Notes under the pieces: generated by a model | Seen by the model: the letters and a program-made list of their open reading frames with translations, nothing else | Told to the model about the DNA's origin: nothing | The model's database searches: none | Assembly (NCBI GenBank): GCA_046292385.1 | Contig: JBKBRF010000014.1 | Span: 31,955-95,954, forward strand | Direction: 5' to 3' | Origin: Armatimonadota bacterium | GTDB taxonomy: Bacteria; Armatimonadota; SYMT01 | Length of the DNA stretch: 64,000 nucleotides | Translations under genes and position numbers: made by a program | Shown here: positions 3,457-58,563 of the stretch, in pieces | Numbering within the stretch: the first letter of the stretch is position 1 | How the letters are laid out: each line of letters starts with the position of its first letter

Positions 3457-5541
3457 GTGACCACGCAAGTACGGGGCGCCTGCCCTCACAACTGTCCGGA
3501 TACCTGCGGCTGGGTCGTGACGCTGGACGACGCCGGCACTCCGGTGAAGATCCAGGGCAACCCGGAGCATCCCTATACCGGCGGCTGGCTCTGCACCAAG
3601 GTGAACCGCTACCTGGAGTGGGTGCTGCACCCGGAGCGGCTGCGCCGGCCGCTGCGCCGGGTCGGCGCGAAGGGGGAGGGGCGCTTCGAGCCGATCTCCT
3701 GGGAGGAAGCGCTGGACGAGATCGCCTCGCGCTGGCAGGGCCTGATCGCGGAGCACGGACCCGAGGCGATCCTGCCCTACAGCTACTCCGGCACGCTGGG
3801 TCTGGTGCAGTGCGAGGTGGCGAACCGGAGGCTCTGGACCCGGATGGGCGCCTCCGGGCTCGACCGCACCATTTGCTCCGTCGCCGGCACGGAAGCGCTG
3901 CGGGTGACGGTCGGCGGCAGCTTCGGCACCGACCCCGAGGCGGTGGTCGAGAGCCGGCTGGTGCTGCTCTGGGGCACCAACCCGGCGAGCACCCACCCGC
4001 ACTTCATCCCCTGGCTGGACGAAGCTCGCCGCCGCGGCGCGAAGGTCTACCTGATCGATCCCCACCGCTCGCTCACCGCCCGGCGCGCCGACGTCCACCT
4101 GCGGCCGAGGCCGGGCTCCGATGCCGCGCTGGCGCTCGCGCTGATGCACCTGCTGTTCCGGGACGGGTACGTCGACGAAGCCTGGGCCGCGGAGCACACC
4201 GTCGGGCTCGAGGCGCTGCGGAGCCGCGTCGGCGAGTGGACCCCGGAGCGGGCGGCGGAGGTGACCGGCATCCCCGTCCCGCAGATCGAGGCGCTGGCGC
4301 GCGACTACGGCACCCTTCGGCCGTCGCTGATCCGCACCTCCATGGGGCTGCAGCGCCACAGCAACGGCGGCAACACCATCCGCACCCTGGCCTGCCTGCC
4401 GGCGCTGGTGGGGCAGTACGGCAAGCCGGGCGGCGGGCTCCTCTACAGCACCGGAGGTTACCTCGCCTGGCCGGGGCAGGTGCTCTGCCCGGACGAGCTG
4501 CGCGCAGCCAGCCCGAACCCGAGCCCGCGGGTGATCAACATGAACCGGCTGGGGGCGGCGCTGGAGCAGGCGGAGCCGCCGGTCCGCGCCCTCTACGTCT
4601 TCAACAGCAACCCGGCCGCGGTGGCGCCGAACTCCAACCGGGTGGCGCGGGGACTGGCGCGGCCGGATCTCTTCACCGTGGTGCACGAGCTGTTCCTGAC
4701 CGATACCGCGAAGTGGGCCGACCTCGTGCTGCCGGCGACCAGCCAGTTCGAGCACTGGGATCTGCACAAGGCGTACGGGCACCTCTACCTCTCGCTGAAC
4801 CGCCCCGCCATGGCGCCGCTCGGGGAGGCGAAGAGCAACTGGGAGGTGATGCGGCTCCTGGCGGCACGGTTGGGCTATGCGGAGCCTGCCTTCGCGGAGA
4901 GCGCGGAGGAGATCATCCAGGCGGCGCTGGCACAGGGCGGGCCGGCGGTCGAGGGGATCACCTGGGAACGGCTGCTCGAAGAGGGCTTCTGCCGCCTCAA
5001 CTACCCGCGTCCGCACGTGCCGTTCGCCGGGGGCCGCTTCCGGACGCCGAGCGGCAAGGTGGAGCTGTTCAGCCAGCAGTTGGCGGACGCCGGCATGGAC
5101 CCCCTGCCGGGCTGGGTGCCCGACGTGGAGAGCGCGGAAGGCAGCCCGGAGCGGCAGCGCCGCTATCCCCTGCAGCTGGTGAGCGCCGCCAGCCACTACT
5201 TCCTGAACAGCAGCTTCGGGAACGTCCCGAGCCTACAGCGCCGCCACGGCGACCCGAGCCTGGAGATCCATCCGGACGACGCGAGCTCCCGCGGCATCCG
5301 GGACGGGGACTGGGTGGAGGTGGCGAACGATCGCGGCGCCTTCCTGGCGCGGGCGCGGGTGGGGGAGACGGTCTCGCCCGGGTCTCTCTTCAGCCCGACG
5401 GTCTGGTGGCGCCGGCACGCGCCGGACAGCCGCAACGCCAACTGCACCACCAGCGACGAGCTCTCCGACTACGCCGGCGGCGCTACGTTCCACGGGAACC
5501 TGGTCGAGGTCACCCTCGCCCCCGCACCCCCCGCTACGTGA
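3457..5541 (+). CDS. Molybdopterin oxidoreductase (MopB superfamily; nitrate-reductase / formate-dehydrogenase-like catalytic subunit)
   Basis: GTG start with SD. The N-terminal 4Fe-4S motif CPHNCPDTCG...C is present. Overall similarity to Mo-bisPGD enzymes with a C-terminal MopB-CT-like domain. Confidence 0.85.
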   Translation: MTTQVRGACPHNCPDTCGWVVTLDDAGTPVKIQGNPEHPYTGGWLCTKVNRYLEWVLHPERLRRPLRRVGAKGEGRFEPISWEEALDEIASRWQGLIAEHGPEAILPYSYSGTLGLVQCEVANRRLWTRMGASGLDRTICSVAGTEALRVTVGGSFGTDPEAVVESRLVLLWGTNPASTHPHFIPWLDEARRRGAKVYLIDPHRSLTARRADVHLRPRPGSDAALALALMHLLFRDGYVDEAWAAEHTVGLEALRSRVGEWTPERAAEVTGIPVPQIEALARDYGTLRPSLIRTSMGLQRHSNGGNTIRTLACLPALVGQYGKPGGGLLYSTGGYLAWPGQVLCPDELRAASPNPSPRVINMNRLGAALEQAEPPVRALYVFNSNPAAVAPNSNRVARGLARPDLFTVVHELFLTDTAKWADLVLPATSQFEHWDLHKAYGHLYLSLNRPAMAPLGEAKSNWEVMRLLAARLGYAEPAFAESAEEIIQAALAQGGPAVEGITWERLLEEGFCRLNYPRPHVPFAGGRFRTPSGKVELFSQQLADAGMDPLPGWVPDVESAEGSPERQRRYPLQLVSAASHYFLNSSFGNVPSLQRRHGDPSLEIHPDDASSRGIRDGDWVEVANDRGAFLARARVGETVSPGSLFSPTVWWRRHAPDSRNANCTTSDELSDYAGGATFHGNLVEVTLAPAPPAT

Positions 5542-14116: not shown

Positions 14117-14200
14117 TGTGCCAGCGGTACTGCCGGAGTGACGCGCTTGCGCGGCCCTTCATTCCGTGGTGAAGTCGGCTTCGCCCAGCAGGGCCCCGCA
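14117..14200. repeat. MITE/REP-like element, partial copy (one arm) of the palindromic element at 44024-44165
   Basis: GTACTGCCGGAGTGACGCGCTTGCGCGGCCCTTC...GTGAAGTCGGCT.CGCC matches both arms of the 44-kb copy at >85% identity. Confidence 0.7.
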
Positions 14201-14448: not shown

Positions 14449-15699
14449 GTGAGCCCCCTGTTACGAGGTGGAGACGTGCAAGAGATTCAGACCCTTAAAC
14501 GGCAGGGCCTGTCGATCAGCGCCATTAGTGCTCTGACCGGCTTCGATCGCAAGACGGTGCGCAAGTATCTGGCCGAGGCGGCGCCGGTGCCGGCCTACGG
14601 CCCCCGCACTCCCCGGCCCAGCAAACTGGAGCCGTTCCGGCACTATCTCGACTCCCGGCTGCAAGCCGGCGTCTGGAACGCACAGGTCCTGCTCCGAGAG
14701 TTGCGGGAGCAGGGCTACCCGGGCGGTTACACGCTCGTCAAAGACTACCTGCAGCCGCGGCGGCAAGCCGCGCGGGAGGTCGCGGTGCGGCGCTTCGAGA
14801 CCCCAGCCGGACACCAGGCACAGGTGGACTGGGGCGATCTCGGACACCTGGAGAGCCCCGACGGACGGCAGCCGCTCTACGGCTTCGTCCTCACCCTCGG
14901 CTACAGCCGGGCGATGTTTGCCCAGCTCGCCACGGACCAGACCCTCTCCACGCTGCTCTCCCTGCACGAGGCGGCGTTCCACGCGCTCGGAGGCGTGCCG
15001 CGGGAGATCCTTTATGACCGGATGAAGACGGTGGTGCTGGGGGTGGACGAGCGCGGCGAGATCCGCTGGCACCCGCTGTTTCAGGACTTCGCCCGGTACT
15101 GGGGCTTCACGCCGCGGCTCTGTCGGGCTTACCGCCCCCAGACCAAAGGCAAAGTCGAGAGCGGCATCAAGTACGTGCGCCGCAACTTCCTCTGTGGGCG
15201 CACCGCCACCTCGCTCTCCGATCTGCAGGATCAGCTGCGGGTCTGGACCGCCGAGGTCGCGCTGCCGCGCGTCCATGGCACCACGCATCGAGTCGTGCGG
15301 GAGGCCTGGGAGGAGGAGCGGCCACACCTCCTGCCGGTGCGGGGACGGCCGCCGTTTCCCCACTGCCCCGCCCTGGTGCGGCGGGTGAGCCGCGATGCTT
15401 TCGTGAGCTACCGGAGTAACCGCTACTCCGTGCCCTGGACCGCCGTCGGCCAGGAGGTGACCCTGCGTGAGCGCGGCGGAGAGCTGGAGATCGAGCTCGG
15501 AGGCGTCCGGCTCGCTTGCCATCCGCTCTGTCTCGGTAAGCACCAGGTGCGCACGGTCCCGGCTCACCACGACGGCCTGCCGGAGGCAGTCAGCGAGCGG
15601 CCCGGCGGTAAGACCCGGATCACGGTCCCGCTCTCGGGGCCGGAAGTCGAGGTGCGCTCCCTCTCCGCCTACGAGGCGCTGGCGGGAGTCGCGGCATGA
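14449..15699 (+). CDS. istA: IS21-family transposase IstA (HTH + DDE integrase core)
   Basis: GTG start after GGAGAGGAGG SD. N-terminal HTH LKRQGLSISAISALTGFDRKTVRKYL. DDE region with the ...YRPQTKGKVE motif typical of IstA. Confidence 0.9.
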   Translation: MSPLLRGGDVQEIQTLKRQGLSISAISALTGFDRKTVRKYLAEAAPVPAYGPRTPRPSKLEPFRHYLDSRLQAGVWNAQVLLRELREQGYPGGYTLVKDYLQPRRQAAREVAVRRFETPAGHQAQVDWGDLGHLESPDGRQPLYGFVLTLGYSRAMFAQLATDQTLSTLLSLHEAAFHALGGVPREILYDRMKTVVLGVDERGEIRWHPLFQDFARYWGFTPRLCRAYRPQTKGKVESGIKYVRRNFLCGRTATSLSDLQDQLRVWTAEVALPRVHGTTHRVVREAWEEERPHLLPVRGRPPFPHCPALVRRVSRDAFVSYRSNRYSVPWTAVGQEVTLRERGGELEIELGGVRLACHPLCLGKHQVRTVPAHHDGLPEAVSERPGGKTRITVPLSGPEVEVRSLSAYEALAGVAA

Positions 15700-16516
15700 G
15701 CCGGACGAGCAGCACGAGCCGGGTGGCGGTCATCGACCGGGTGCATCAGGCGCTGGTGAGCCTGGGCTTGCCGGAGATGGATGGGGTCGTGGAGACGCGC
15801 CTGGAGCAGGCCACCCGGCAGGAGCAGGCCTACGGCGAGTTCCTCGCGGAGCTGCTGGAGACCGAAGTTCAGGCCCGCCGGGAGCGGTATCTCCGCACCC
15901 GGATGCGCCTGGCCCATCTCCCAGCAGTGAAGACGCTGGAGCAGTTCGACTTCGGCTTTCAGCCGAGTATCGACGAGCGCCAGATCCGGGAGCTGCAGAC
16001 CCTGCGGTTCGTGTCAGAGGGGAGCAACGTGATTCTGCTGGGACCGCCGGGGGTGGGCAAAACCGGGTGCCCCCTGGGCGCATGGCGATCGCGCTCGCGG
16101 TGGAGACGGTGCGCTCCGGGCACGGCGCGTACTTCATCACCGCCCACGATCTGGTGAGCGATCTGGGACGTGCCGCGCGGGAGAACCGGCTGGACCGACG
16201 GCTGCGGGTCTATCTGGCGCCGAAGGTGCTGGTGGTCGACGAGATGGGCTACCTGCCGCTGGATACGGTGGGGGCGACGATCTTCTTTCAGCTCGTGAGC
16301 GCCCGGTATGAACGCGGCAGCATCGTGCTGACCAGCAACAAGAGCTACGGCGAGTGGGGCAGCGTGTTTGGGGATCCGATCATCGCCACGGCGATCCTGG
16401 ACCGATTGCTGCACCACTCGACCACGGTGAACATCCGAGGTGAGAGCTACCGGCTCAAAGAACGCCGGAAAGCGGGTCTCCTCTCCGCCCCCAAACCGGA
16501 GGAGACCCGTCCGTAG
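15696..16516 (+). pseudogene. istB: IS21 helper ATPase IstB, disrupted by a frameshift just after the Walker A motif
   Basis: Frame 1 gives ...LLGPPGVGKT then GCPLGAWRS (stop at 16157). The remainder, RMAIALAVETV...LVVDEMGYLP...LTSNKSYGEW...RLLHHSTTVNIRGESYRLKE, continues in another frame to 16516. Offset is 17 nt between GKT and MAIAL instead of 9, i.e. a frameshifting indel near 16065-16085 (or an assembly error). Confidence 0.7.
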
Positions 16517-32654: not shown

Positions 32655-32826
32655 CGGGTTCCACAGTCGACACCGCATGTCAGGCAACGGGATCTAAACA
32701 GAGGTCCAGATTCAGAGTTGCCGTCAACGGGCACAGCGGTGTTCTTGATTGATGGCTCGTGTCCGGCCGGAGCAGATTACCGGGCCACGCAGTGTAGCTG
32801 GCTGTTGACGAGAATGAGCAGGGGAA

Positions 32827-34182
32827 ATGTCGGGGCAGGGTAAAGTTCACACTTCGGAAGACGAAACCGCACGAGGAACGCTGGTTACGAAGTCGTCGGA
32901 AGCGCTCGAGCAAATGCTGAGAGACTATCAAGTGAGCCAGCGTCCACTTGAGGTGAATTTCAGGACCCTCGTGGGAGCGATACCGATACATGATCTTACC
33001 CATTCAATTTGCCCCTATCCCGCGCGCCTTCTCCGCCAGATCCCTCGCTTCTTTCTCCATTGCGAGCAACTTTCGACGCGGGATACGGTCGTGGTCGATC
33101 CATTTTGCGGTTCAGGCACGGTGCTAGTGGAGGCGGTAGCGGCCGGCAAACAGGCTTGGGGCATAGACAAGAACCCTTTCGCTCGTCTGCTTTCGCAGGT
33201 GAAAACCACCCATGTAGATTGCCAAGCGGCAAATGCCGCGGCGTTAGCGGTGCTCGAAAGGGCGAAAAGGAGCCGAACGGTTGTAGAACCGGAAATAGTT
33301 AATGCTGAACTCTGGTTTGCACCCAAGGTTAGGAGCGCTCTGCGGCGAATAAAAGGAGCGATCAGCGATTCGAAGCTCCCAATCGAAATAGAGAGATACC
33401 TACTCGTCTGTTTAGCCGTTACCGCCGATAAGTGTAGTTTACGTGATCGGCGCATCCCCGTACCCGTTCGTCGTAGCGACTGGCAGCAGTTCTCAGTGAA
33501 GCAAGACTCCCGAACCGTATGGATGAGTTTTGAAGCTGTAGCACATGCAGTCGCCGCTCGGATAAGCGGATTGCCAAAGTCCACCGGAGCCGCATTCGTA
33601 TATGGGGATGACGCACTCAACGTAGATGAATTCTATGACGCTTCGATGTCAGGAATAATTCAAAGACCGAGTTTGCTCGTCACAAGTCCGCCCTACGGGG
33701 CGGCGCAAAAGTACATCCGAAGCAGCAGCCTCGCTATCGGGTGGACTGGACTGGCAAGCCCGAAGGGCCTAACGCAGCTCGAAAGAGAACTCATCGGAAG
33801 AGAACATTTAAGAAAGCCCGATTTGGAGATGCTGCAATCTCCATCTCCGCTGATTGACCATGAAATCAGATGCATCTTCAAGAGAGATCCTCAGCGGGCG
33901 GCGATATATGCGGAGTACTTCAGAGCCATGGATAAGGCGATAGCAGCCTTCGGAAGACTCCTGCAGCCGGGAGCATTCTCGGTAGTCATAGCAGGAACCA
34001 ATATAGTTGCTGGCAGGATGATTGAGACACACAGATTCCTACGAGATCTTTCGGTGAATCACGGATTCTCGCCAGTGCTAGAACTGAGAGACACAATTCG
34101 GGGTAGGACTCTGCTGACTAAGCGCGCATCTACTGCGAGACCGCTGTCACACGAAACCATCCATGTTCTCCAGAGGAGGTAA
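32827..34182 (+). CDS. DNA amino-methyltransferase (N6-adenine or N4-cytosine), orphan (no recognisable cognate endonuclease)
   Basis: Motif I VVVDPFCGSGT (FxGxG), then ~190 aa later motif IV SPPY. This order with a long intervening region suggests an alpha/gamma-class MTase. 451 aa. Confidence 0.8.
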   Translation: MSGQGKVHTSEDETARGTLVTKSSEALEQMLRDYQVSQRPLEVNFRTLVGAIPIHDLTHSICPYPARLLRQIPRFFLHCEQLSTRDTVVVDPFCGSGTVLVEAVAAGKQAWGIDKNPFARLLSQVKTTHVDCQAANAAALAVLERAKRSRTVVEPEIVNAELWFAPKVRSALRRIKGAISDSKLPIEIERYLLVCLAVTADKCSLRDRRIPVPVRRSDWQQFSVKQDSRTVWMSFEAVAHAVAARISGLPKSTGAAFVYGDDALNVDEFYDASMSGIIQRPSLLVTSPPYGAAQKYIRSSSLAIGWTGLASPKGLTQLERELIGREHLRKPDLEMLQSPSPLIDHEIRCIFKRDPQRAAIYAEYFRAMDKAIAAFGRLLQPGAFSVVIAGTNIVAGRMIETHRFLRDLSVNHGFSPVLELRDTIRGRTLLTKRASTARPLSHETIHVLQRR

Positions 34183-34187
34183 AGTGC

Positions 34188-35150
34188 ATGGGCAGTGATA
34201 CCGAGGAAGAATTGATCCGTCGGATCAAGACTTTGTCCGAGCAAGTCTGGGAAGGCAGGTGCAAATCTCCAGATATGGGTGAGTGGCTACGGAACTTTAC
34301 CGGCCGCCATTGCGGAAGTGCCGAGGTTGAGCATCTCCACGCGTTGCACCTACTCGCTCATGTCTCATACTTCGGGCTCAGAGAATTGCGGATTCTACTG
34401 CGCGCGATGTATCGCGAACTATTCCGCTATCCAATCGTACAGCAGATTCGATCCGATCTTGGAGGAAGCCGTGACGCGGCCTCAATTCATCGCGTTTACT
34501 CCGATGAACTGAAGTCGACACGTTTTGTGGGTATGGGGAACCCGGCCGAGAGTGGCACGCATTTGCTCTACTACTTCAGGCAGGAGAACCAGCTTCCTCG
34601 AAAGTGCTTCGCCAGCCAACACGAACTCCTCAACGCTGGTATCACAGATGCTAAAGTAGACTTTTCCGACCCCGGTCTCAAACGAGTAGTATTCATTGAC
34701 GACTTGTGTGGGAGTGGAGATCAAGCGGTGCGGTATAGCAGAACCCTGTTGAAAGATCTGCGTACTATCGCAGTAAGGCGTGGCCGGGAATTACAGTTTC
34801 AATACTTGGTACTCTTCGGGGCGGTCCCGGGTCTGGAGCGTGCGGCGACTTCAACCGAATTTGACATCGTGAAGGCGGTAAATGAACTAGATGAGTCTTG
34901 CCAAGTATATGCCACCAACTCGCGGCTGTTTCGGAAACCCCCTCCCGGGATAGACGCGGCGCTGTCGCACGAACTGGCATCCGGCTACGGTGAGGAGTTG
35001 TGGCCGGAACATCCGCTAGGGTTTTCGAACGGACAATTACTGTTGGCCTTTCATCATAACGTGCCGGACAACTCGTTGCCAATTCTCTGGCACGATGATG
35101 AGACGCCACCGTGGAACCCGATTTTTCCTCGACAACCCAAGCTAGACTGA
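34188..35150 (+). CDS. Hypothetical protein with a phosphoribosyltransferase-like PRPP-loop motif (VVFIDDLCGSGDQAV)
   Basis: ATG 34188 with GGAGG SD. The hhhhDDhxxSGxQ pattern resembles the PRTase fold signature. The N-terminal half is unknown. 320 aa. Confidence 0.45.
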   Translation: MGSDTEEELIRRIKTLSEQVWEGRCKSPDMGEWLRNFTGRHCGSAEVEHLHALHLLAHVSYFGLRELRILLRAMYRELFRYPIVQQIRSDLGGSRDAASIHRVYSDELKSTRFVGMGNPAESGTHLLYYFRQENQLPRKCFASQHELLNAGITDAKVDFSDPGLKRVVFIDDLCGSGDQAVRYSRTLLKDLRTIAVRRGRELQFQYLVLFGAVPGLERAATSTEFDIVKAVNELDESCQVYATNSRLFRKPPPGIDAALSHELASGYGEELWPEHPLGFSNGQLLLAFHHNVPDNSLPILWHDDETPPWNPIFPRQPKLD

Positions 35151-35158
35151 GGTGCTAG

Positions 35159-37165
35159 ATGCCAGCGAATCCGTTCGAGATTACCAAAGCGGTAGATTTT
35201 ACTGACGAGCAAATTGTGCAGAACTGGGTAGACTTGCCGGGTGGAGGCTTTCAGTCTCTCGCCGATCCCCGATCGCCCATGCCCAGGTTCTTGGTAGGAG
35301 GAAAGGGTGGAGGTCGCACACATATGCTGCGGTACTTCTCCTATCCGCTGCAGCGGTTACGTCACGGGAATGACTTGCTTTCAGCAATACAGGATGATGG
35401 ATATGCTGGAGTGTATTTCCGATGTACTGGTCTGAATTCTTCGCGGTTTTCGGGGAAGCAGCAAAGTCCCGAAGTATGGAGCGCTGTGTTTGCATACTAC
35501 ATGGAGATTTGGCTGGGCCGTCTCGTCGTCGACTTAATCAGGGAGTTAGGGTTGGGTAACGCGCAACTCGCTAACACCACATCGTCGATGGACTTCGTGA
35601 AAGGCGTGAGAGGTCTCTTTGATGAAGAGATCGAGTCAAGCCTGTCGCAGTTGGACACGCTCGACCAATTAGCGGTCTCCCTTCATAACATCCAGCGCCA
35701 GCTTGATCTCTCGATCAACAATGTCGCTCTAACTAGATCCCTCGATGTGCGAATTGCGGTCACCCCTGGGCGGCTGGTTTTCGGAATACCGGAACTTGCA
35801 ACCCGAACATTTCCGCAGATCTCTGGCTTAACATTTGCTTACCTCCTCGACGAGTTTGAGAATCTAAGCGAGGATCAGCAGCGCTATGTAAATACACTGG
35901 TGCGTGAGAAGCAACTTCCCACGACATTTGTCATTGGAAGTCGTCAGTTCGGATTGCGAACGCAAGAGACGCTAAGCGCCGGGGAAGAGAACAAGCAGGG
36001 AAGCGAGTTTGACCTGGTCGTATTAGAGGATGCATATCGAACCTCGGATAAGTACTATCACAGCTTTTGCGAAAGAATCATTCGAAAGAGACTGGATGCC
36101 GCAGGAGTGGATGTCTATCGCCCGGAGAGGCTCGACGCTTATTTCAGCAAGCCATTGGGAGGGGTCTCCGGACTAGAGGAGCGAGCGCGGATTCATGTTT
36201 CGGAGTGCCTTGGTGATCAAGATGAGCGACCGTGGATCATCCGCCTTAAGGATCAACTTCTGCAGTGGTCACCGGGTCAGGATATAGGAAAGATCATTGA
36301 GGAAGTAAGGTTTCCGTCGAGTCCACTCCACGAGAAGTTTGCAGTGCTGCTGGTTTATCGATCCTGGGCCGATGGCAATGACCCGCTACGAGAAGCGCGA
36401 CAGTTCCGATTCCGGATAGAAGCACTAGCTAATGGCGCGCGCGTGGGAGATGACTTAGCCACAACCTATAAACACTACAGGGGAGATCTCTACGCACAAT
36501 TGGTCTCGCAGTTGCGTCGGCCGCAGGAGTACCACGGGATTGACGATTTCGTGCTCATGTCCGGCTATCTCCCAAGGAATCTTCTGGTGTTACTAAAGCA
36601 AGTGACGCGGTGGTCATTATTCCTTGGAGAACACCCGTTCCGCGGTGAGCTGATATCTTCGAAGGCTCAAACTGAAGGAGTGCGCGAAGCGAGCAACTGG
36701 TTTCTTAGCGACTCCAAGGGATTGGGGCGGATCGGTGAAGAAACGGAACTGGCGGTGCGGCGTCTTGGGGGTCTCTTTCGGGACATGAGATTCGCTGACA
36801 AACCGGTTGAAGTAAGTTGCTCGTCATTCTCAACTGATCGCCGGGGACTCACTGACAGAGCTATCGCCGTCCTGGACAATGCCGTATCGCATAGTTTAAT
36901 ACTTAAGGTGCCAACTGGGCGGCGTGAGCGAAACACTCACGTACTACAGCACAAGTATCAATTGAACCCCATGCTTGCTCCATTGTTTGACTTGTCGGTC
37001 GCCAGAAGAGGCACAGCGAACTTTACTCCCGAGCAATTAGTCGCACTTTTTGATCCAAGTGTCGATGCAGAGCACTTCATCGCTGAGCGAACGCGGCTCT
37101 TGGCGCGGCTGAATGCTCCGTTCTCTACTCCGACTCCGCAGCCAGCCCTGGATTTCTCTGAGTGA
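35159..37165 (+). CDS. Hypothetical protein with glycine-rich P-loop-like motif (FLVGGKGGGRTHML) and Walker-B-like FDLVVLEDAY; large C-terminal region unknown
   Basis: ATG 35159 with GAGGTG SD. The motif resembles deviant Walker A (KGGxGK[ST]) but with R in place of the P-loop Lys. 668 aa. Confidence 0.45.
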   Translation: MPANPFEITKAVDFTDEQIVQNWVDLPGGGFQSLADPRSPMPRFLVGGKGGGRTHMLRYFSYPLQRLRHGNDLLSAIQDDGYAGVYFRCTGLNSSRFSGKQQSPEVWSAVFAYYMEIWLGRLVVDLIRELGLGNAQLANTTSSMDFVKGVRGLFDEEIESSLSQLDTLDQLAVSLHNIQRQLDLSINNVALTRSLDVRIAVTPGRLVFGIPELATRTFPQISGLTFAYLLDEFENLSEDQQRYVNTLVREKQLPTTFVIGSRQFGLRTQETLSAGEENKQGSEFDLVVLEDAYRTSDKYYHSFCERIIRKRLDAAGVDVYRPERLDAYFSKPLGGVSGLEERARIHVSECLGDQDERPWIIRLKDQLLQWSPGQDIGKIIEEVRFPSSPLHEKFAVLLVYRSWADGNDPLREARQFRFRIEALANGARVGDDLATTYKHYRGDLYAQLVSQLRRPQEYHGIDDFVLMSGYLPRNLLVLLKQVTRWSLFLGEHPFRGELISSKAQTEGVREASNWFLSDSKGLGRIGEETELAVRRLGGLFRDMRFADKPVEVSCSSFSTDRRGLTDRAIAVLDNAVSHSLILKVPTGRRERNTHVLQHKYQLNPMLAPLFDLSVARRGTANFTPEQLVALFDPSVDAEHFIAERTRLLARLNAPFSTPTPQPALDFSE

Positions 37166-38127
37166 CGATGGACTACAGCCTTCTTCGCATTGATCAATAT
37201 CAGGCAACGGAGCTTGAAGCGCTCCCCGAGTGGGATATCTTCATCTCCGCCTACAACGAGTCGCAGCGAGTAATCACTGTTTTTGACTCCGTGCGCGCGC
37301 AGCGTAAAGAGTGGGTAATCCATCCGGAGTACGACTTCGAGGATGGCGAATTGCCGAAGACCGGAGTTGTGCGAGTTCTGCATACGCGTGATGAAGCGGA
37401 GTTCTGGCATGACTACTTCTCTGAGGCCGACTTTCATAATCTTCCCCGTGATTCCCGGATTTGCGTCGATGTGACGGGGTTTATGCGTCCGCATTTGATG
37501 CTATTACCGCGGATGCTTCGATTGCTTGGATTCGCTCAACTGGATATAGTGTATTCTGATCCTCGTGAGTATCAATCGGGAGAAAAGACTCAATTCAGCA
37601 AAGGGGCAGTCACTGAGGTGCGGCAAATCCGTGGGTTTGAGGGTACACACCTGCCCAGTGGCGACGAGGACTTGCTGGTCATTGGGGCTGGATATGACGA
37701 CGATTTGATCCGGAGAGTCTCCGAAGATAAGCGCGCGGCTCGGAAACTGATGATGTTCGGGCTTCCTAGTCTTCAGCCCCATATGTATGAGGAAAACCGT
37801 CTGCGCGCAGCAAGAGCCGAAGAGGCAGTAGGCCCGTTGCCGGCACGTTCTCTGTTGTTTGCGCCCGCCAACAATCCGTTTGCCACGGCGCAGGAGCTTC
37901 ACGACAAGATACAACAGTTGCGCTCGACTGGCTTTACGAACCTGTACTTCAGCCCGCTTGGCACGAAGGCTCAAGCACTGGGATTTGCTCTCTACTATCT
38001 GTGCGAGTGTGTGGGTTCGAGTGCGAGCGTCGTATTCCCGTTCGCAGAGTATTACACTCGTGAGACATCCATCGGCTTGGCTCGCGTTTGGTGCTATCGG
38101 GTGGAACTCGATTGGCTGAACGTCTGA
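37162..38127 (+). CDS. Hypothetical protein (321 aa), last gene of the island operon
   Basis: GTG 37162 overlaps the upstream TGA (GTGA); the alternative is ATG 37168. No recognisable motif. Confidence 0.45.
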   Translation: MTMDYSLLRIDQYQATELEALPEWDIFISAYNESQRVITVFDSVRAQRKEWVIHPEYDFEDGELPKTGVVRVLHTRDEAEFWHDYFSEADFHNLPRDSRICVDVTGFMRPHLMLLPRMLRLLGFAQLDIVYSDPREYQSGEKTQFSKGAVTEVRQIRGFEGTHLPSGDEDLLVIGAGYDDDLIRRVSEDKRAARKLMMFGLPSLQPHMYEENRLRAARAEEAVGPLPARSLLFAPANNPFATAQELHDKIQQLRSTGFTNLYFSPLGTKAQALGFALYYLCECVGSSASVVFPFAEYYTRETSIGLARVWCYRVELDWLNV

Positions 38128-38208
38128 ATGTGTCGGTGGAGTTATTGCTCTAGTTTGTTTTCTCACATTGACCACTGGTCGGTTGGGTTACCGGATGTTC
38201 CGCGGCGA

Positions 38209-40236: not shown

Positions 40237-40410
40237 GTGCCACGCGTTCAGCAGCGCCGCGCCGCTGTTAGCTCGAGTGGATCAAACCGGCACACTCGAG
40301 CTACGGCGAGAACGACTGCCGGATTCGCGCCTCGGACTGAAGTCGAGGCTACAGAAAGCGAAGCCCGCCTGCGCGGGCTGAGTTCTGCCGACCCCAGCAC
40401 CACGCTGTAC

Positions 40411-41087: not shown

Positions 41088-43943
41088 TCACCCCGTGCTC
41101 TGCATCCCCGCGGCGATCCCGATGATCGAGAGCAGCAGCGCGTTCCTCCAGGGGTCGTCTTCGCCTTCGTGGTGCTCGTCGAGGTCCATCAGGGCGACCT
41201 GCAGCTTGTTGAGCGGTGCCAGGGCAGGGTTGCGGAGGGCGACCGTCTTCCGGATCACCGGCGCCTGGGAGAGCAGCACCTCGTCGCCGGTGACGCGCAG
41301 GATCCAGCGGCTGGTGCGCTCGTGCTCCGCCGCGATCAGGCCGTGGATCCGCTCCCCCAGCTCCGGCGGCTGCACGCGGGCGGCGTACCAGGCGGCGGTG
41401 CGGAGGTCGGCGCGCACCAGCTCGAGCTGGGTGTTGCGGACGATCGTCCGGAAGAACGGCCACTCCTGGTGCAGGCGGCGCAGCAGCGCCTCGTGCTCCG
41501 GAGACTGCTCCGCGAACCACTCCAGCGCGCTGCCGAAGCCGAACCAGCCGGGGAGCACGTAGCGCGCCTGCACCCAGGCGAAGACCCACGGCACCGCCCG
41601 CATGTGCTCTGGGCCGCCCTTGGCGCGGCCGGGCCGGAAGACGGGCCGGGAGGCGATGGAGAGGCGGCTGATCGGCTCGATCGGGGTCGCCTGGAGGTAG
41701 AAGTCCCAGAAGTCGGGGTCGTGGTGGACCAGCGACTGGTAGACCTCCCGCGAGCGCTCCGCCATCGCGGCAATCGCTTCGGCTCCGCCTTCCGGCAGTC
41801 GGAGGCGCGCGGCGGTGCGGCCGGCGGTGAGCAGCACGGCGCTGGCGATCTGCTCCAGGTGCCGGTGCGCGATCGGCGGCAGGCCGTAGCGGAAGGAGAT
41901 GATCTCCCCCTGCTCCGTGAAGCGGATACGGCCCTGGAAGCTCCCCGGCGGCTGCGAGAGGATCGCCTGGTTGGCGCGTCCGCCGCCCCGGCCGACCGTC
42001 CCCCCGCGCCCGTGGAAGAGGCTCACCTCCACCCCGGCGCGCCGGCCGACCGCCGCCAGGCGGCGCTGGGCGTCGTAGAGCAGCCAGTTGGACGCGAGAT
42101 AGCCGCCGTCCTTGTTGCTGTCCGAGTAGCCGAGCATGATCTCCTGGCGGTCGCCGCGGGCGCGGACCTGGTGCGCGTAGGCGGGGTTGCGGAAGAGACG
42201 GCGGGTCAGCTCCTCGCAGTGGCGGAGGTCCTCCACCGTCTCGAAGAGCGGGACGATGTCGACGTCGCTCTCCAGCACCGGCTCGCCGCCCTCCTGGGTG
42301 CGCCAGCGCACCAGCCCCTCTTCCTTCGCCAGGAGCAGCGCCTCCAGCACGTCGCTCGCGCCGCGGGTCATGCTGATGATGTAGGTGGTGACGGCGCGGG
42401 GGGAGAGGTAGCGCTGCGCGTGCCGGATGACTTCCAGCACCTGCAGGGCGCGGCTGCTCCCTTCGGAGCCTTCCCAGCCGCGCGGCAGCAGCGGGCGCGG
42501 GTTCAGCAGCTCCCGGGTGAGCAGGCGCACCTTCTCCGCCTCCGAAAGCTCCTTGTAGCTCCGGCCGGGCGGCAGCAGCCGGGCGGCGTGGACCAGCTCG
42601 TCCATCACCGCCTCGTGCTCGTCGCTGTGCTGGCGCACGTCGAGGGAGGCAAGGTGCAGGCCAAAGGTGCGCACCTGCACGGCCAGGTGCGCCAGGCCGC
42701 CCTCGTCCGCCAGCGCCTCCGCGTGGTTCTCCCGCAGGCTGCGGCGCATCCGCTCCAGGTCTTCCAGCAGCTCCTCGGCGCCGGAGTAGGCGGGGGCGTG
42801 CGGGACGAACGAGGGACCTTCCGCGCGGAAGTCGGTCAGCGCGGCCAGGTGGTCGAGGGTCGCCTGCAGCCGCTCGCGGATGAAGAGCAGCTTGCGGGAG
42901 TACGGCTCGGAGGCGGCGCGCGCCAGCAGCTCCTCCGGAACCGGGACGGTCTGGTGGTCGTGCTCCAGCGACTCGAGCAGCTCCGCGCTGGCCGGCACCT
43001 GCCGCGCGCTCACGGTCAGCTCCCGCCGCAGCGCCTGCGCGCGCTCCAGGTAGTACTCCAGCACCAGCTCCCGGTGGGAGAGCAGGGTGGTCCAGGTCAC
43101 CTCCGGCGTCACCCTCGGGTTGCCGTCCCGGTCGCCGCCGATCCAGGAGTGGTAGACCACCAGCGGCGGGATGTCGAACGTCACCCCCGGGTACGCCTCC
43201 GCCAGGGCGGCGCGGAGGTCGTCGTGGAGCCACGGCACCACGTTCAGGATGGTGCGCTCGAAGAAGAAGAGGCCGTTGCGTACCTCGTCGCCGACGGTCA
43301 ACGGCGCGGCGCGCAGCTCATCGGTCTGCCAGAGCGCCGTCAGCGCCTGGCGCAGCTCCGTCTCCGCGTGCCCGCGGCTGTCGAGCGGCCGGTCGAGCCG
43401 CGGCAGGGAGGGCGGCTGCGCCCGCTCCACCAGGGCGGCGGCGATGCGCTGCAGCTTCTCCAGCACCGCCCGGCGGCGCGCCTCGGTGGGGTGGGCGGTG
43501 AGGGTGGGGCCGATGCGGACGCGGTTCAGCAGCGCCTGCATCTCCTCCGCGGTGGTGCCCGCCTGCCGCAGGCGCCGCACCGCGTCCCGGATCGATTCCG
43601 GCCGGGCGCGGCCGTTCGCGCCGGAGATCCGCTCCCGGTTGACCCGGATGATCTCCTTCTGCTCCGCGGTGTTGAGGAGCTGGAAGAACACGGTGAACGC
43701 GCGAAGCAGTCGCTCCAGCGTCTGCGGGTCGCGCAGGGCGGGGAACCGGTCCAGCAGCCCCTCCGGCGCCTGCTCGTCCGCGTAGAGCGCGCGGGCGAGC
43801 GCCAGCAGCGATTCCTCGCCCTGCTGGATCAGCAGCTCGCCCAGCATCTGGTCCAGCAGCAGGATGTCGTCGCTCAGGGAGTCGGTGAGACCGATCTCGC
43901 GGGGAGTCAGGGGCAGGAAGCGGTCTTGCGGCGATTCGTGCAT
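41088..43943 (-). CDS. ppc: Phosphoenolpyruvate carboxylase
   Basis: Signature motifs VGYSDSNKDGG and FHGRGGTVGRGGG plus the C-terminal ...MQSTG-type tail. ATG 43943. 951 aa. The N-terminal 79 aa of the ORF track are rejected. Confidence 0.9.
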   Translation of the reverse strand: MHESPQDRFLPLTPREIGLTDSLSDDILLLDQMLGELLIQQGEESLLALARALYADEQAPEGLLDRFPALRDPQTLERLLRAFTVFFQLLNTAEQKEIIRVNRERISGANGRARPESIRDAVRRLRQAGTTAEEMQALLNRVRIGPTLTAHPTEARRRAVLEKLQRIAAALVERAQPPSLPRLDRPLDSRGHAETELRQALTALWQTDELRAAPLTVGDEVRNGLFFFERTILNVVPWLHDDLRAALAEAYPGVTFDIPPLVVYHSWIGGDRDGNPRVTPEVTWTTLLSHRELVLEYYLERAQALRRELTVSARQVPASAELLESLEHDHQTVPVPEELLARAASEPYSRKLLFIRERLQATLDHLAALTDFRAEGPSFVPHAPAYSGAEELLEDLERMRRSLRENHAEALADEGGLAHLAVQVRTFGLHLASLDVRQHSDEHEAVMDELVHAARLLPPGRSYKELSEAEKVRLLTRELLNPRPLLPRGWEGSEGSSRALQVLEVIRHAQRYLSPRAVTTYIISMTRGASDVLEALLLAKEEGLVRWRTQEGGEPVLESDVDIVPLFETVEDLRHCEELTRRLFRNPAYAHQVRARGDRQEIMLGYSDSNKDGGYLASNWLLYDAQRRLAAVGRRAGVEVSLFHGRGGTVGRGGGRANQAILSQPPGSFQGRIRFTEQGEIISFRYGLPPIAHRHLEQIASAVLLTAGRTAARLRLPEGGAEAIAAMAERSREVYQSLVHHDPDFWDFYLQATPIEPISRLSIASRPVFRPGRAKGGPEHMRAVPWVFAWVQARYVLPGWFGFGSALEWFAEQSPEHEALLRRLHQEWPFFRTIVRNTQLELVRADLRTAAWYAARVQPPELGERIHGLIAAEHERTSRWILRVTGDEVLLSQAPVIRKTVALRNPALAPLNKLQVALMDLDEHHEGEDDPWRNALLLSIIGIAAGMQSTG

Positions 43944-44023
43944 GGTCCTGGTTCGATTGATGCGGCAAAACAAGCCCGGAGCACCCGCTTCGGCCCGATG
44001 GGTCAGCCCTGCGTTCTCTCGCG

Positions 44024-44165
44024 GAGTGACGCGCTTGCGCGGCCCTTCTCTCGGTGTGAAGTCGGCTCCGCCAAGCACGGCCGCCAGGCAGGAGCCGAAT
44101 GCTCGAAAGCAGGTGCCAGTACGCTGGGGAGGCCGCGCAAGCGCGTCACTCCGGCAGTACTCGGT
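44024..44165. repeat. MITE/REP-like palindromic element with 22-bp perfect terminal inverted repeats (GGAGTGACGCGCTTGCGCGGCC ... GGCCGCGCAAGCGCGTCACTCC)
   Basis: The arms lie at 44027-44048 and 44131-44152, separated by ~82 nt. A related partial copy occurs at 14117-14200. Intergenic, between the selenoprotein gene and ppc. Confidence 0.8.
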
Positions 44166-44313: not shown

Positions 44314-45432
44314 CTACTTGATGCCGGCCTTCTCGATCGCCTCGCGCATGGCGGTCTCGTTGAAGCCGACGCCGCGCCACAGGATCGTGCCGTCCGCCCC
44401 GATCAGGTAGTTGGTCGGGTAGGCCTGCACGCCGTAGGCCTTGCCGAGGGTGTACTTGTCGCGGTCGCCGCCCATCACGATCGGGAACGACCAGCTGTTG
44501 TCCTTGATGTATTTCTGGACCGTCTCCAGCTTGTCGGAGGCGTTCACGGCGACCAGGCCCAGGCCCTTGTCCTTCAGCTCGGTGTAGATCTTCTGGAGGT
44601 GAGGAAACTCCTCACGGCAGGCGCCTCAGCCATAGAACCAGAAGTTGATCACCACCGCCTTCTTGCCCTGGAGCGCCTGCTCCAGGCTGAGCTGCTGGCC
44701 GTCCGGGGTGGGGAGCTGGAAGCTCGGCGCCTTGCTGCCGACCTTCAACAGGCTGTCCTCGAAGTCGGGCTGCTTGAACTCTTCGAAGCCCGCCGGGACC
44801 TTGAACGCGAACTGCTGCGCGGTCAGCGGCGCGTCGAGCTTCAGGTTCTTGATCCAGATGCGCTGGGTCAGCTTCTGCTCGCCGTTGCCGAACGTCATCT
44901 CCGCCCCTTCCGGCACGCCGGCAGCGGTGAAGAAGAGCTTCTGGGTCTGGCCGCCCGCGCCGGAAACCTGCACTACCTCGTAGCTCTTGGCGCCGACCTT
45001 CTGCGTCCCCAGGTGCTTCGTCTCGCCCCCGGCTCCGAGGGAGTCCGGGTTGAAGAACGCCGCGCCGATCGGGCCCGCAGCGCTGCCGATCATGCCGCCC
45101 TTCTCGTCCGCAGGCTGCTTGAGGTACTGCTTCTGGGAGTCGAGCGTGATGTAGACTTCTTTCCCGGTCGACTGAAAACTCTGGCTGCCTTCGGGCGTCT
45201 TCAGGGTCAGCTTGCCGAGGTTCGGCTTCAGAAGCTGCACCGTGCCGGTGAGCTCCTGCTTCTCCCCGTCGCTGTTGATGTTGATCTGGAGATCCCCGGT
45301 CAGGCTCTTCGCCTTCTTCAGGCTCTCCCGCGCCTTCGCCAGGAGCGCGTCGGATTTCGAGTCCGCGTGGGCCGCCGCCACCGCCACCAGGGCGGCCGCG
45401 CAGGCCAGCGCGGAGATGGGTCGCAAACGCAT
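44314..45432 (-). CDS. Selenoprotein: secreted TlpA/ResA-like thiol:disulfide oxidoreductase with UxxC active site (in-frame TGA at 44626-44628), preceded by an N-terminal LolA-like domain
   Basis: ORFs 44626..45432 and 44314..44547 are in the same frame. Read-through gives ...VINFWFYG-U-GACREEFPHLQKIY..., which is the canonical TlpA FWASWCGPCRxExP motif with the first Cys replaced by a TGA codon. A hairpin lies 10 nt 3' of the TGA. Signal peptide MRLRPISALACAAALVAVAAAHA. Confidence 0.7.
44599..44615 (-). promoter_or_regulatory. SECIS-like hairpin GUGAGGA-GUU-UCCUCAC, 10 nt downstream of the in-frame UGA
   Basis: Perfect 7-bp stem with GU in the apical loop. The paralogue (45790-45806) carries GUGCGGA-GUU-UCCGCAC, a compensatory A:U to C:G change that preserves the stem. 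Confidence 0.55.
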
Positions 45433-45495
45433 GGCATACCTCCGATGGGGCCGTGGAGCTCCGGCGAGGCCGCCGGATTCCGGACCTCGGTCACG

Positions 45496-46692
45496 CTACT
45501 TTACCCCGAGCTTCTCAATCGCATCCCGCAGGGTCTTCTCCGTGGCGGGAGAGAAGCCGACTCCCCGCCACGCGACCTTTCCTTCCGAATCGAGCAGGTA
45601 GTTGGTGGGGTAGGCGCGCACTCCGTACGCCTTCCCCAGCGTGTACTGCTCCCCCTTGCCGCCCATCACGATCGGGAAGGTGAACTTCCCTTCCTGCACG
45701 TACTTCCGGATCGTCTCCTCGCTGTCGCCCCGGTTGACGGCGATCAGCTCGAGACCCCGGTCCTTCAACTCTTCGTAGATCTTCTGGAGGTGCGGAAACT
45801 CCGCACGGCAGGCGCCTCAGCCGTAGAACCAGAAGTTGATCAGGACCGCCTTCTTCTCTTTGAGCGCGCTTTCCAGGCTCAGTTGCCCGCCGCCCGGTTG
45901 GGGCAGCTGGAACCGTGGCGCCTCTTTGCCTACCGGGATCAGCTCCGCCGTGTAGTCCGGCGCCACCGGCTGCGCGATGACATATTTCTGGTAGCCCTCC
46001 GGAATCTCCCGCACCAGCTCTTCCGGCTTCGCCGGCTCGTTCAGGCGCACTTCCGTGAGCCAGCCGGAGTTGCGCAGCATCTGGTCGCCGGTGCGGAAGA
46101 GGAGCTCCACCCCGCGCAGCACTCCCGCTTCGTCGAAGAAGAAGCTCCGCTCCTGCGGCGCCCGCTCCGCCCGGAGCTGCAGCACTTCGTAGGTCCGGCC
46201 GTCCACCTCCTTCCGGCCGCCGTAGCTCAGCGTGCCGGCCTCCAGCTCCGCCTTCAGGTTCAAGAAGGCGTGCATCGGCATGAACGTCCCACCGAAGCCG
46301 ACGTTACGCCCCTGGGGATCGGCGGCCGATTCCAGGAACTGCTTCTGCGACGTCATCAGCCGGAGGAGCTGCTTTCCGTCCGAGACGACGGTCTGGACGG
46401 GGGCGCCCTCGAAGAGCACCGTGTAGCGTGCCAGGTTCGGGCGCTGGATGACCCCCTTGACCCGGTACTCGAATTCTCGACCGCCGCCGCCGCGCGTGAT
46501 CTTCATCTCACCGCGCAGCGTCTGGATCTTCTCCGCCGCCGCCAGGGCTCGCGCCTTCAGCGCCTCCGCCTGCTCGTCGGCGCGCGCCGCCAGGCCCAGC
46601 GCCAGCACGCCCAGCGCCGCCAGCAGTCCCGCATGCCGTCTCCTCATGCCGCCGCTCCTTTCCCGCCGCCGCCCGCGCGTCGGCCGTATCAC
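45496..46692 (-). CDS. Selenoprotein paralogue: TlpA-like thiol:disulfide oxidoreductase with UxxC (in-frame TGA at 45817-45819)
   Basis: Read-through gives ...VLINFWFYG-U-GACRAEFPHLQKIYEELKDRGLELIAVN.... The true start is probably ATG ~46647 (MRRRHAGLLAALGVLALGLAARA signal peptide). The SECIS-like hairpin is conserved. Confidence 0.7.
45790..45806 (-). promoter_or_regulatory. SECIS-like hairpin GUGCGGA-GUU-UCCGCAC downstream of the UGA of the second selenoprotein
   Basis: Same position relative to the UGA as in the first copy. The base pair co-varies. Confidence 0.55.
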
Positions 46693-57925: not shown

Positions 57926-58074
57926 CACACGGTCCGGCGCGCCCCTGGTTCCCCGCTCGTGGGGAGACGACTGCCACGCGGCCGGAAACCATGCTGCCGC
58001 CTCGCCCCGGCGGCTTGCTACACTCACGCTACGAGGAGCTTTCGATGGTTGAACGACGCGAAGGCGAGGTTACC

Positions 58075-58563
58075 ATGAAGGGTAACCCGATCACCCTGCT
58101 CGGCCCGCGGATCGAGGCGAATGAGGACGCGCCGGAGTTTACCGCGCTGAAGAACCTGGTCACCCCGGTCAAGCTCTCCGACTCCAACGGTAAGGTCCGC
58201 GTCCTCCTTTCCGTGCCGTCGCTCGATACCCCCGTCTGCTCCCTGGAGACGAAGCGCTTCAACCAGGAAGCCGAGGGCCTGGGCGGCGACGTGGAGATCC
58301 AGGTGGTGAGCATCGACACGCCGTTCGCGCAGAGCCGCTGGTGCGGCGCCGAAGGCGTGAGCAACGTGGTGACCCTCTCCGACTTCCGCGACCGCGACTT
58401 CGGCAAGAAGTACGGCGTGGAGATCGAGGGTCTCGGCATCTACGCCCGCGCGGCGTTCGTGGTCGACCGCCAGGGCGTGGTCGTCTACAGCGAGTACGTG
58501 CCGGAAGTAGCCCAGGAGCCGAACTACAGCGCCATCCTGGACGCCGCCAAGGCCGCTATCTAA
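58075..58563 (+). CDS. tpx: Thiol peroxidase Tpx (atypical 2-Cys peroxiredoxin)
   Basis: ...LLSVPSLDTPVCSLETKRFN... is the Tpx peroxidatic Cys motif, with the resolving Cys in ...RWCGAEG. 162 aa. An alternative start is ATG 58045. Confidence 0.85.
   Translation: MKGNPITLLGPRIEANEDAPEFTALKNLVTPVKLSDSNGKVRVLLSVPSLDTPVCSLETKRFNQEAEGLGGDVEIQVVSIDTPFAQSRWCGAEGVSNVVTLSDFRDRDFGKKYGVEIEGLGIYARAAFVVDRQGVVVYSEYVPEVAQEPNYSAILDAAKAAI

Follow-up and report, generated by a model that had tools for sequence, protein, structure and literature searches.

A tandem pair of LolA-like/TlpA-like thiol:disulfide oxidoreductases in an Armatimonadota bacterium as probable selenoproteins with an in-frame UGA and a covarying SECIS-like hairpin

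The stretch of DNA analyzed here, 64 kb of a contig (JBKBRF010000014.1) labeled Armatimonadota bacterium and referred to below as the window, carries two tandem genes, gene 1 and gene 2, in each of which an in-frame TGA occupies the catalytic codon of a TlpA/ResA-type thioredoxin domain and is followed by a short hairpin resembling a bacterial selenocysteine insertion sequence (SECIS). Based on comparison with their homologs, we propose that both are very probably SECIS-dependent, UGA-recoded genes with selenocysteine (Sec) as the inserted residue. The initial annotation had already read them as selenoproteins, and this reading now draws support from the occurrence of paired Sec and Cys homologs, the conservation of the frame downstream of the TGA, the agreement of the hairpins with bacterial SECIS (bSECIS) criteria, covariation in the stem, the retention of rare codons within it, and the recognition of a LolA fold in the N-terminal domain. 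Both products would be exported selenoproteins in which a cleavable signal peptide is followed by two domains, first a beta-barrel of the LolA fold and then a thioredoxin domain of the TlpA/ResA type; Sec would replace the nucleophilic N-terminal Cys of the latter's CxxC motif to give U-G-A-C. In this proposal the in-frame UGA would not be taken as a stop; instead the 17-nt hairpin would act as the SECIS, recruiting SelB with Sec-tRNA(Sec) to the ribosome, and translation would yield full-length proteins of 372 or 383 aa. The resulting selenol/thiol pair would operate as a thiol-disulfide reductase in the cell envelope, a redox role taken from knowledge of the family, and the LolA-like barrel might, more speculatively, bind a hydrophobic or acylated partner. 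Sec insertion, export, the direction of redox flow and the substrate are properties that we infer from the features described below.

Two tandem genes interrupted at the same redox codon

The two genes share a strand, gene 2 being upstream of gene 1 and separated from it by 63 nt (Table 1). Gene 1 begins with an ATG that has GGAGG 6 nt 5' of it and gene 2 with an ATG that has AAGGAG 8 nt 5' of it, and both end in TAG. The sequence features described in the initial annotation were all found, and all of them lie on the minus strand, which it had not specified. It had located the pair at 44314-46692, and the gene locations stand, although the upper end of that span corresponds to a GTG at 46692, an alternative start in the same frame upstream of the gene 2 ATG (46647). 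A scan for promoters and terminators around the gene pair found none. Both genes read (V/L)INFWFYG-TGA-GAC-R(E/A)EFPHLQKIY, and the earlier suggestion that the TGA takes the position of the first Cys of the TlpA/ResA motif agrees with our alignment to Cys homologs and to Bacillus subtilis ResA, in which the TGA column (A1, C269) is the first Cys of CxxC in 15 aligned homologs as well as in ResA. The frame had also been thought to continue for about 95 aa beyond the TGA; it does continue, but for 103 codons in gene 1 and 106 codons in gene 2, in each case up to the TAG.

Several features of the segment beyond the TGA are those of translated sequence. Its GC content at third codon positions (GC3) is coding-like, at 0.96 and 0.87, and the most conserved peptide of the family, GACREEFPHLQK, sits just past the UGA. 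Identity between the two copies is 63% beyond the UGA and 35% before it, values from which they appear to be old paralogs; the proportion of synonymous differences (pS) between them is 0.37-0.48 in a dN/dS (nonsynonymous to synonymous rate) comparison in which the copies are saturated and codon-biased. An error of assembly at these positions is unlikely, as 2850 nt of the window, both TGAs among them, recur with 0 mismatches in a separate Logan assembly of SRR31360857, whose reads possibly share a sample with the window. The public record for gene 1, MFN3650299.1 (ACK47B_12045; "MAG: hypothetical protein", that is, from a metagenome-assembled genome, Armatimonadota bacterium), is 268 aa long, encoded on a 143-kb contig and identical to the N-terminal fragment of gene 1, from which it follows that the public annotation ends this gene at the TGA. 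In the collections searched we found neither a full-length call for gene 1 or gene 2 nor a call containing U for any member of the family.

A family of TGA and Cys forms

Relatives were collected by a word-indexed protein search, then from the DNA of the short relatives so obtained, and then by a scan of metagenomes with the family alignment (80 loci). The protein search returned full-length relatives of 356-389 aa that read NFWFYG-C-G(P/A)-C-R at the redox site, along with short relatives of 261-284 aa that end exactly at NFWF(Y/H)(G/S/N/T). In the DNA of the latter a TGA is present at the redox codon in every one and is followed by GACREEFPHLQ, with the thioredoxin domain intact wherever the contig is long enough. 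Metagenome assemblies yielded 35 distinct orthologous genes with TGA at this same codon; distinct sequences of the Cys form numbered 15-17, according to which segment was considered. The 35 TGA orthologs have diverged to ~30-45% identity, and in all of them the ~103-106 codons downstream are free of frameshifts and further stops. Alignment against Cys-containing homologs, which the initial annotation had put forward as a check, thus yields numerous Sec/Cys pairs. A scan of genome-collection contigs for relatives returned only two unrelated thioredoxins.

With E <= 1e-10 as the limit, a HMMER scan of 1.84 billion cluster representatives recovered 267 relatives. Of the best 150 of these 267 representatives (clustered at 50% identity), ~109 are gene calls that stop before the redox codon (105 ending in NFW[FYA]xx right before it and 4 more in variants such as NFWSYG), 22 have CxxC, and 0 have an annotated U. 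Given that ~109 of the 150 closest representatives stop at the redox codon, the family appears to consist mostly of TGA forms; at a clustering level of 50% identity it numbers at least ~100 clusters, and TGA forms make up about three quarters of its closest representatives. In one relative, L091:1419 (P0010, from the Joint Genome Institute (JGI)), the predicted protein has Trp at the redox position (NFWFYGWGACR); since the underlying DNA has TGA there, this Trp is a gene-calling artifact of reading TGA as Trp under genetic code 4.

The terminal stop codon is TAG in every family member checked (7 loci, 5 distinct genes: the window genes, L003, L006 and L009), whereas in the window as a whole TGA is the most frequent stop (19 TGA, 15 TAG, 8 TAA). 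This could reflect avoidance of a second UGA in a message read by SelB, or mere shared ancestry.

In a rough neighbor-joining tree the two window copies fall in different subclades, each with metagenomic orthologs of its own. One other contig, L021 (Ga0073934_10033148), has two tandem TGA copies (L021:2237 and L021:3376), which are mutually closest relatives and look like the product of an independent duplication. As tandem pairs occur on 2 of ~30 contigs and the L021 copies are sisters, the arrangement seems to be uncommon and to have arisen more than once. The earlier remark that tandem Sec-containing reductases are uncommon therefore holds for the tandem arrangement, but not for this class of selenoprotein, which is well known.

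A covarying hairpin in the position of a bacterial SECIS

The hairpins of the two genes have the sequences and positions given in the initial annotation, ten nt 3' of each TGA: both are 17 nt long, with a 7-bp stem and a 3-nt GUU loop, their first nucleotide is the 11th after the UGA, and the spacing from UGA to loop is 17 nt in both. The published bSECIS criteria (PMC13188914, Fig. 2) specify a loop of 3-9 nt with a G in its first two positions, a stem of 4-16 bp, a distance of 16-37 nt from UGA to loop, and a minimum free energy of at most -7.5 kcal/mol, and both hairpins fall within all four. Like the SECIS of Escherichia coli fdhF and the bSECIS consensus, the window hairpin has a small apical loop with G and then U, but in comparison with that of fdhF its stem is shorter and bulge-free, at 7 bp with a 3-nt GUU loop, and there is no resemblance in sequence. 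The fdhF SECIS stem-loop likewise begins 11 nt after its UGA.

The stronger evidence comes from the orthologs. When 32 TGA forms are aligned without gaps, 96.9% of stem positions are paired, and sliding the partners by 1-3 columns lowers the whole-structure pairing from 94.7% to 41-64%. The pair formed by columns 32 and 42 is A:U in 27 of the 32 forms and C:G in the remaining 5, with no form unpaired, and the covariation score was matched in 0 of 500 shuffles. At the level of codons the change of GAG to GCG (Glu to Ala) is always accompanied by a change of CCU to CCG, which is silent. The A:U to C:G compensatory change on which the initial annotation relied is accordingly real and is bolstered by the orthologs, although the two window copies by themselves were weak evidence for it. 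The program RNAalifold independently recovers the identical stem.

Codon choice within the stem tells the same way. The stem Arg codon is CGT in 33 of 35 sequences, whereas in the rest of these genes CGT accounts for 9% of Arg codons; the stem Phe codon is TTT in 30 of 31 (13% elsewhere in them); and the stem Pro codon is CCT in 29 of 35 (9% elsewhere in them), the other 6 being the covarying CCG. The Phe codons flanking the stem are TTC in 34 of 34. We take the near-fixation of the rare codons CGT, TTT and CCT in these GC3-rich genes to be a requirement of the stem. TGA forms retain on average 6.7 of the 7 pairs with an energy of -8.4 kcal/mol, as compared to 4.2 of 7 and -2.2 kcal/mol in the Cys forms. 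The distant Cys forms L044 and L048 have the same REEFPH peptide encoded by CGC-GAG-GAA-TTC-CCC-CAT, with which the stem is impossible.

Two further elements were seen around the hairpin. A longer SECIS with a lower stem (3 bp, CUG/CAG) is weakly supported and not claimed, its pairing being 89.6% with 2 double changes and one broken pair in 8 of the 32 forms; in place of this lower stem RNAalifold proposes a different, invariant 3-bp helix. On the other side, starting 15 nt before the UGA, the codons TTC-TGG-TTC (A2 columns 1-9; 44635-44643 and 45826-45834) are invariant in 32 of 32 TGA forms, the Cys forms having TTT at those two Phe codons in 3 of 15 and 6 of 14 sequences, and within these nine nt RNAalifold pairs GGU with (G/A)CC (DNA GCC/GTC) after the UGA. 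The invariance may be a matter of codon bias, or the nine nt may belong to the recoding signal.

Domain architecture and family placement

Both N-termini resemble type I signal peptides, with basic residues, a hydrophobic stretch of ~15 residues and a probable cleavage site of the form AHA-D or ARA-D, and this reading by eye bears out the signal peptides previously assigned to both proteins. The AxA-D site and the mature start AD-x-K-x-DAL are conserved across the family. For the adjoining domain we used an AlphaFold2 model of the N-terminal product of gene 1 in its exact sequence of 268 aa (pLDDT, the predicted local distance difference test, 88.5). Foldseek searches of the PDB with this model gave LolA for all of the top 26 matches, with E-values down to 2e-11, probability 1.00, and template-modeling (TM) scores on target length of 0.57-0.72 overall and 0.67-0.72 for 2w7q, 8v1k, 4ki3 and 1ua8, followed in the ranking by RseB, LolB and LprG/LppX. 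The model thus predicts an incomplete beta-barrel with a helical plug, the fold of the LolA/LolB/RseB/LprG superfamily. An N-terminal LolA-like domain had been recognized previously; the fold is corroborated by the gene 1 model, but the domain measures about 190 aa rather than the ~240 aa first given. It differs from the LolA structures in having only 13-20% sequence identity to them and in being fused to a redox domain, and the LolA equivalog model TIGR00547 scores 29.7 bits against a cut-off of 112, over residues 10-108 only, which leaves it outside that equivalog. The fusion, the low identity and the low score together indicate a LolA-like fold and not a LolA ortholog.

The C-terminal region was compared with Pfam using translations in which U was replaced by C (cut-offs ~26 bits), and one domain was found to extend across the TGA in each gene, with scores for genes 1 and 2, respectively, of 82.5 and 70.9 bits for Redoxin and 81.9 and 81.1 bits for AhpC-TSA. 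Its best relatives of solved structure are 2l5o (E 2e-20) and B. subtilis ResA (1st9, E 1.5e-18); by alignment to ResA the (C/U)xxC motif lies at the start of helix 1, and the U falls on the nucleophilic Cys that comes first in the ResA WCEPC motif. With ResA, Bradyrhizobium TlpA and DsbE (CcmG) the window proteins have in common the signature FW..W-C-x-x-C-(R/K)-x-E-x-P and an extracytoplasmic location, the latter predicted in their case, but they are distinguished from all three by the proposed Sec in place of Cys and by the additional LolA-like domain. The corresponding NCBIfam models score 88.6 bits against a cut-off of 170 (ResA, NF002854), 30.5 against 230 (TlpA, NF047696) and 53.2 against 123 (DsbE, TIGR00385), and as all of these are below their cut-offs we regard the window genes as relatives and not orthologs of these families. 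Peroxiredoxins have the peroxidatic motif PxxxTxx(C/U) (PMC13188914). In the window proteins the sequence before the U is KKAVVINFWFYG, which lacks both the Thr at -3 and the Pro at -7, and the second redox residue is three positions further on, as in the CxxC type; lacking the PxxxTxxC motif, they are not peroxiredoxins.

Weighing the selenoprotein reading

A number of observations weigh against the proposal that Sec is inserted at these codons. Searches of the 64-kb window with ARAGORN, Rfam (at its gathering threshold) and Pfam (~40 genes) found no selA, selB, selD or tRNA-Sec, and ARAGORN found no tRNA-Sec in 36 related loci. Gene neighbors are not conserved between the window and the related loci, and ccdA, dsbD or cytochrome-maturation genes are not among these neighbors. 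The bSECIS criteria are loose, in that 6.4% of all TGA triplets in the window (GC 68%) are accompanied by a hairpin that qualifies with 7 bp or more, and 71-nt folds show no extra stability relative to shuffled sequences (z = +0.55). A single hairpin is thus not beyond chance, its significance comes only from comparison of orthologs, and we rejected single-sequence folding as evidence. Nor is the hairpin strictly exclusive to the TGA forms: the three Cys forms that lie within the Sec clade or closest to it, L092:3838 (P0008), L093:1095 (P0005) and L094:1296 (P0015), keep 6-7 of the 7 pairs. These may have a fossil SECIS left after reversion from Sec to Cys, or the hairpin may be older than the switch to Sec. 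Finally, because the sequences share ancestry, the codon and covariation counts (and the Fisher p-values) are inflated; the rough neighbor-joining tree implies ~2-4 independent switches between A:U and C:G.

With regard to the phylum, Armatimonadota MAGs with canonical tRNA-Sec (SelC) and Sec-containing hydrogenases have been reported (PMC13582414). The same study found tRNA(ReC)-like tRNAs beside the canonical SelC in 5 of 5 Armatimonadota genomes with UXXU-type hydrogenases, and noted that in the presence of a SECIS such tRNAs read UGA as Cys (PMC13582414). Together, these findings support the use of Sec in the phylum and at the same time raise Cys insertion as a minor rival. In that case the UGA would be recoded by means of the same hairpin and SelB, but a tRNA of the tRNA(ReC)/SelC* type would deliver Cys, always or at low selenium, and the mature protein would be an ordinary CxxC reductase. 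The Armatimonadota label of the source MAG lends this some weight, as do the Cys forms nested in the Sec clade, from which it is evident that Cys works at this site. Nevertheless, canonical tRNA-Sec is found in those Armatimonadota genomes as well, the window has a tRNA of neither kind, and the dominance of TGA among the closest representatives is hard to explain if the product were plain Cys; on balance we hold Cys insertion to be improbable, and Sec the expected residue.

We consider it very improbable that the TGAs are genuine stops, in which case the products would be LolA-like proteins of 268 and 276 aa, with the thioredoxin remnants beyond them either left untranslated or decaying as pseudogene fragments. 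It is true that the TGA is where the NCBI pipeline PGAP and every metagenome gene caller terminate the genes, that TGA is a normal stop in this genome, and that Sec machinery was not seen in the window. Yet truncation would have to have struck the catalytic codon inside the thioredoxin domain in 35 distinct orthologs with clean downstream frames, the part beyond the TGA is the best conserved and has a coding-type GC3, and a decaying remnant would not retain the rare codons that preserve the hairpin. The recurrence of the same codon in 35 diverged orthologs, their clean frames and the strong conservation of the post-TGA segment exclude a pseudogene.

The use of TGA elsewhere in the window bears on both this question and the next. 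It ends 17 other called genes, including ppc, in which the match to the PEPcase Pfam profile reaches the last profile position at the C-terminus, and a scan for coding-like frames across a TGA detected only gene 1 and gene 2, plus one adjacent gene pair that merely shares a frame. Genome-wide reassignment of TGA was rejected on these grounds. Least plausible of all is a reading of the UGA independent of Sec machinery, by near-cognate tRNA-Trp or through such reassignment, with Trp or Gly at the active site: its one point of support, the W in the P0010 gene call, goes back to a TGA translated under code 4, coding-like read-through is confined to the two genes, and the CxxC redox site, at which all true homologs have Cys, would be destroyed.

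Relationship to known selenoproteins

Thioredoxin-fold selenoproteins with a UxxC motif are a known class, indeed the archetype of predicted bacterial selenoproteins, and what is new here is an unannotated member with a LolA-like fusion. The reviews PMC9312934 and PMC13188914 both list a "Prx-like thiol:disulfide oxidoreductase" (Prx, peroxiredoxin; PF00578, UxxC/UxxU) and a "thiol:disulfide interchange protein", and the former also has a "thiol-disulfide isomerase-like" family (PF13905, UxxC); a "UGC-containing TlpA" family is described in PMC13188914. The window genes are comparable to the Prx-like and isomerase-like families in their AhpC-TSA, Redoxin and Thioredoxin_8 Pfam matches, in having Sec, here proposed, first in UxxC, in the location of the SECIS inside the coding region just past the UGA, and in the existence of Cys homologs. 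By combining a PF00578 domain with UxxC they fall under the naming rule of the "Prx-like thiol:disulfide oxidoreductase" (WP_010940744.1 and MAK15852.1 being named exemplars of the two families), and they differ from both families in having a signal peptide and a ~190-aa LolA-fold domain. The word "LolA" is found nowhere in the text of PMC13188914, the retrieved table rows of PMC9312934 include no LolA-fused family, and in the literature searched there was no paper linking LolA with selenocysteine in a relevant way.

Curated selenoprotein models give a similar picture. The scores are 41.4 bits against a cut-off of 300 for NF041054 (ResA-like WAxxUGC), 19.3 against 100 for NF053656 (TUGYCR redoxin) and 28.3 against 120 for NF040769 (SelL-related). 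The window genes are like these families in the thioredoxin fold and in having Sec, here proposed, at the redox motif, a weak similarity at the level of the domain, whereas their motif is U-G-A-C as opposed to the U-G-C or T-U-G-Y-C of NF041054 and NF053656. With every NCBIfam selenoprotein score below its cut-off, the window genes belong to none of these families, and their own family is without a curated model.

Other features of the window

A low-GC island at 32800-38150 (GC 0.52-0.54, against 0.66-0.73 around it) has four plus-strand genes (Table 1) and looks like a horizontally acquired, defense-type island. Between the gene 1 stop and ppc there is a perfect 23-nt inverted repeat, CGGAGTGACGCGCTTGCGCGGCC (44022-44153, arms 86 nt apart), a third exact copy of which lies at 14134-14156, ~300 nt upstream of an IS21-like transposase (14449-15696; IstB fragment 15696-16154). 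The number of copies expected by chance is zero, and the repeat may be a derivative of the IS21-like element resembling a miniature inverted-repeat transposable element (MITE), or a terminal repeat of that element. An Rfam match to CRISPR-DR28 at 40357-40380 (35.4 against 35 bits) is spurious, there being no repeat array around it, and an 85-nt tRNA-Arg(CCG) predicted by ARAGORN at 43067-43151 (+), inside the minus-strand ppc, is probably a false positive as Rfam does not confirm it.

The window has two other redox genes. One, of envelope or antioxidant type, encodes a conventional thiol peroxidase, Tpx (57991-58560; NF001808, 186 bits against a cut-off of 123), and has no in-frame TGA. A molybdopterin oxidoreductase of 694 aa (3457-5538; Fe4S4, Molybdopterin and Molydop_binding domains) has an uninterrupted frame and, if it is of the formate-dehydrogenase type, is a non-Sec form.

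Table 1. Coordinates of the two genes, their recoding and domain features, and the genes of the low-GC island, numbered along the window
Feature	Position	Strand	Remarks
Gene 1, LolA-like + TlpA-like oxidoreductase, 372 codons	44314..45432	-	in-frame UGA is codon 269
Gene 2, paralog of gene 1, 383 codons	45496..46647	-	in-frame UGA is codon 277
Gene 1 in-frame TGA, proposed Sec codon	44626..44628	-	motif U-G-A-C; replaces first Cys of CxxC
Gene 2 in-frame TGA, proposed Sec codon	45817..45819	-	
Gene 1 SECIS-like hairpin, GUGAGGA-GUU-UCCUCAC	44599..44615	-	-8.6 kcal/mol
Gene 2 SECIS-like hairpin, GUGCGGA-GUU-UCCGCAC	45790..45806	-	-9.9 kcal/mol; C:G version of the covarying pair
Gene 1 putative signal peptide, MRLRPISALACAAALVAVAAAHA, cleaved before DS	45364..45432	-	read by eye; low pLDDT in model
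Gene 2 putative signal peptide, MRRRHAGLLAALGVLALGLAARA, cleaved before DE	46579..46647	-	read by eye
Gene 1 LolA-fold domain, ~aa 25-210	44803..45360	-	AlphaFold model and Foldseek
Gene 1 thioredoxin-fold domain (Redoxin/AhpC-TSA/Thioredoxin_8), aa 230-362	44347..44745	-	spans the UGA
Gene 2 thioredoxin-fold domain, aa 239-376	45520..45933	-	spans the UGA
DNA methylase	32827-34179	+	low-GC island
PRTase-CE protein, PF24390	34188-35147	+	low-GC island
ORC-CDC6-like protein, PF24389	35159-37162	+	low-GC island
Protein without Pfam match	37162-38124	+	low-GC island

Conclusions

The proposed recoding would leave knowledge of Sec decoding itself unchanged, and a specialist would not be surprised by it. 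Its practical bearing is on annotation: ~100 related public clusters are cut off at the same codon, and a family model with the UGA and the SECIS would repair all of them, while gene calls under code 4 such as P0010 can hide selenoproteins in metagenome catalogs. The family also illustrates cleanly how a bacterial SECIS of minimal size (17 nt) can sit within a strongly conserved peptide, and with Sec forms and hairpin-keeping Cys forms both at hand it would be useful for studies of Sec/Cys switching. As a wider and rather doubtful conjecture, the window genes could belong to a large, mainly Sec-containing family of LolA-like proteins fused to UxxC-type TlpA domains, unnamed in curated models and reviews, in which the barrel could steer selenium redox chemistry to hydrophobic or acylated envelope substrates such as oxidized lipids or lipoprotein cysteines, and whose UGA the tRNA(ReC) of Armatimonadota might read as Cys at low selenium. 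If the selenoprotein reading is true, this member of the Armatimonadota is a selenium user and has Sec in redox enzymes exported to its envelope.

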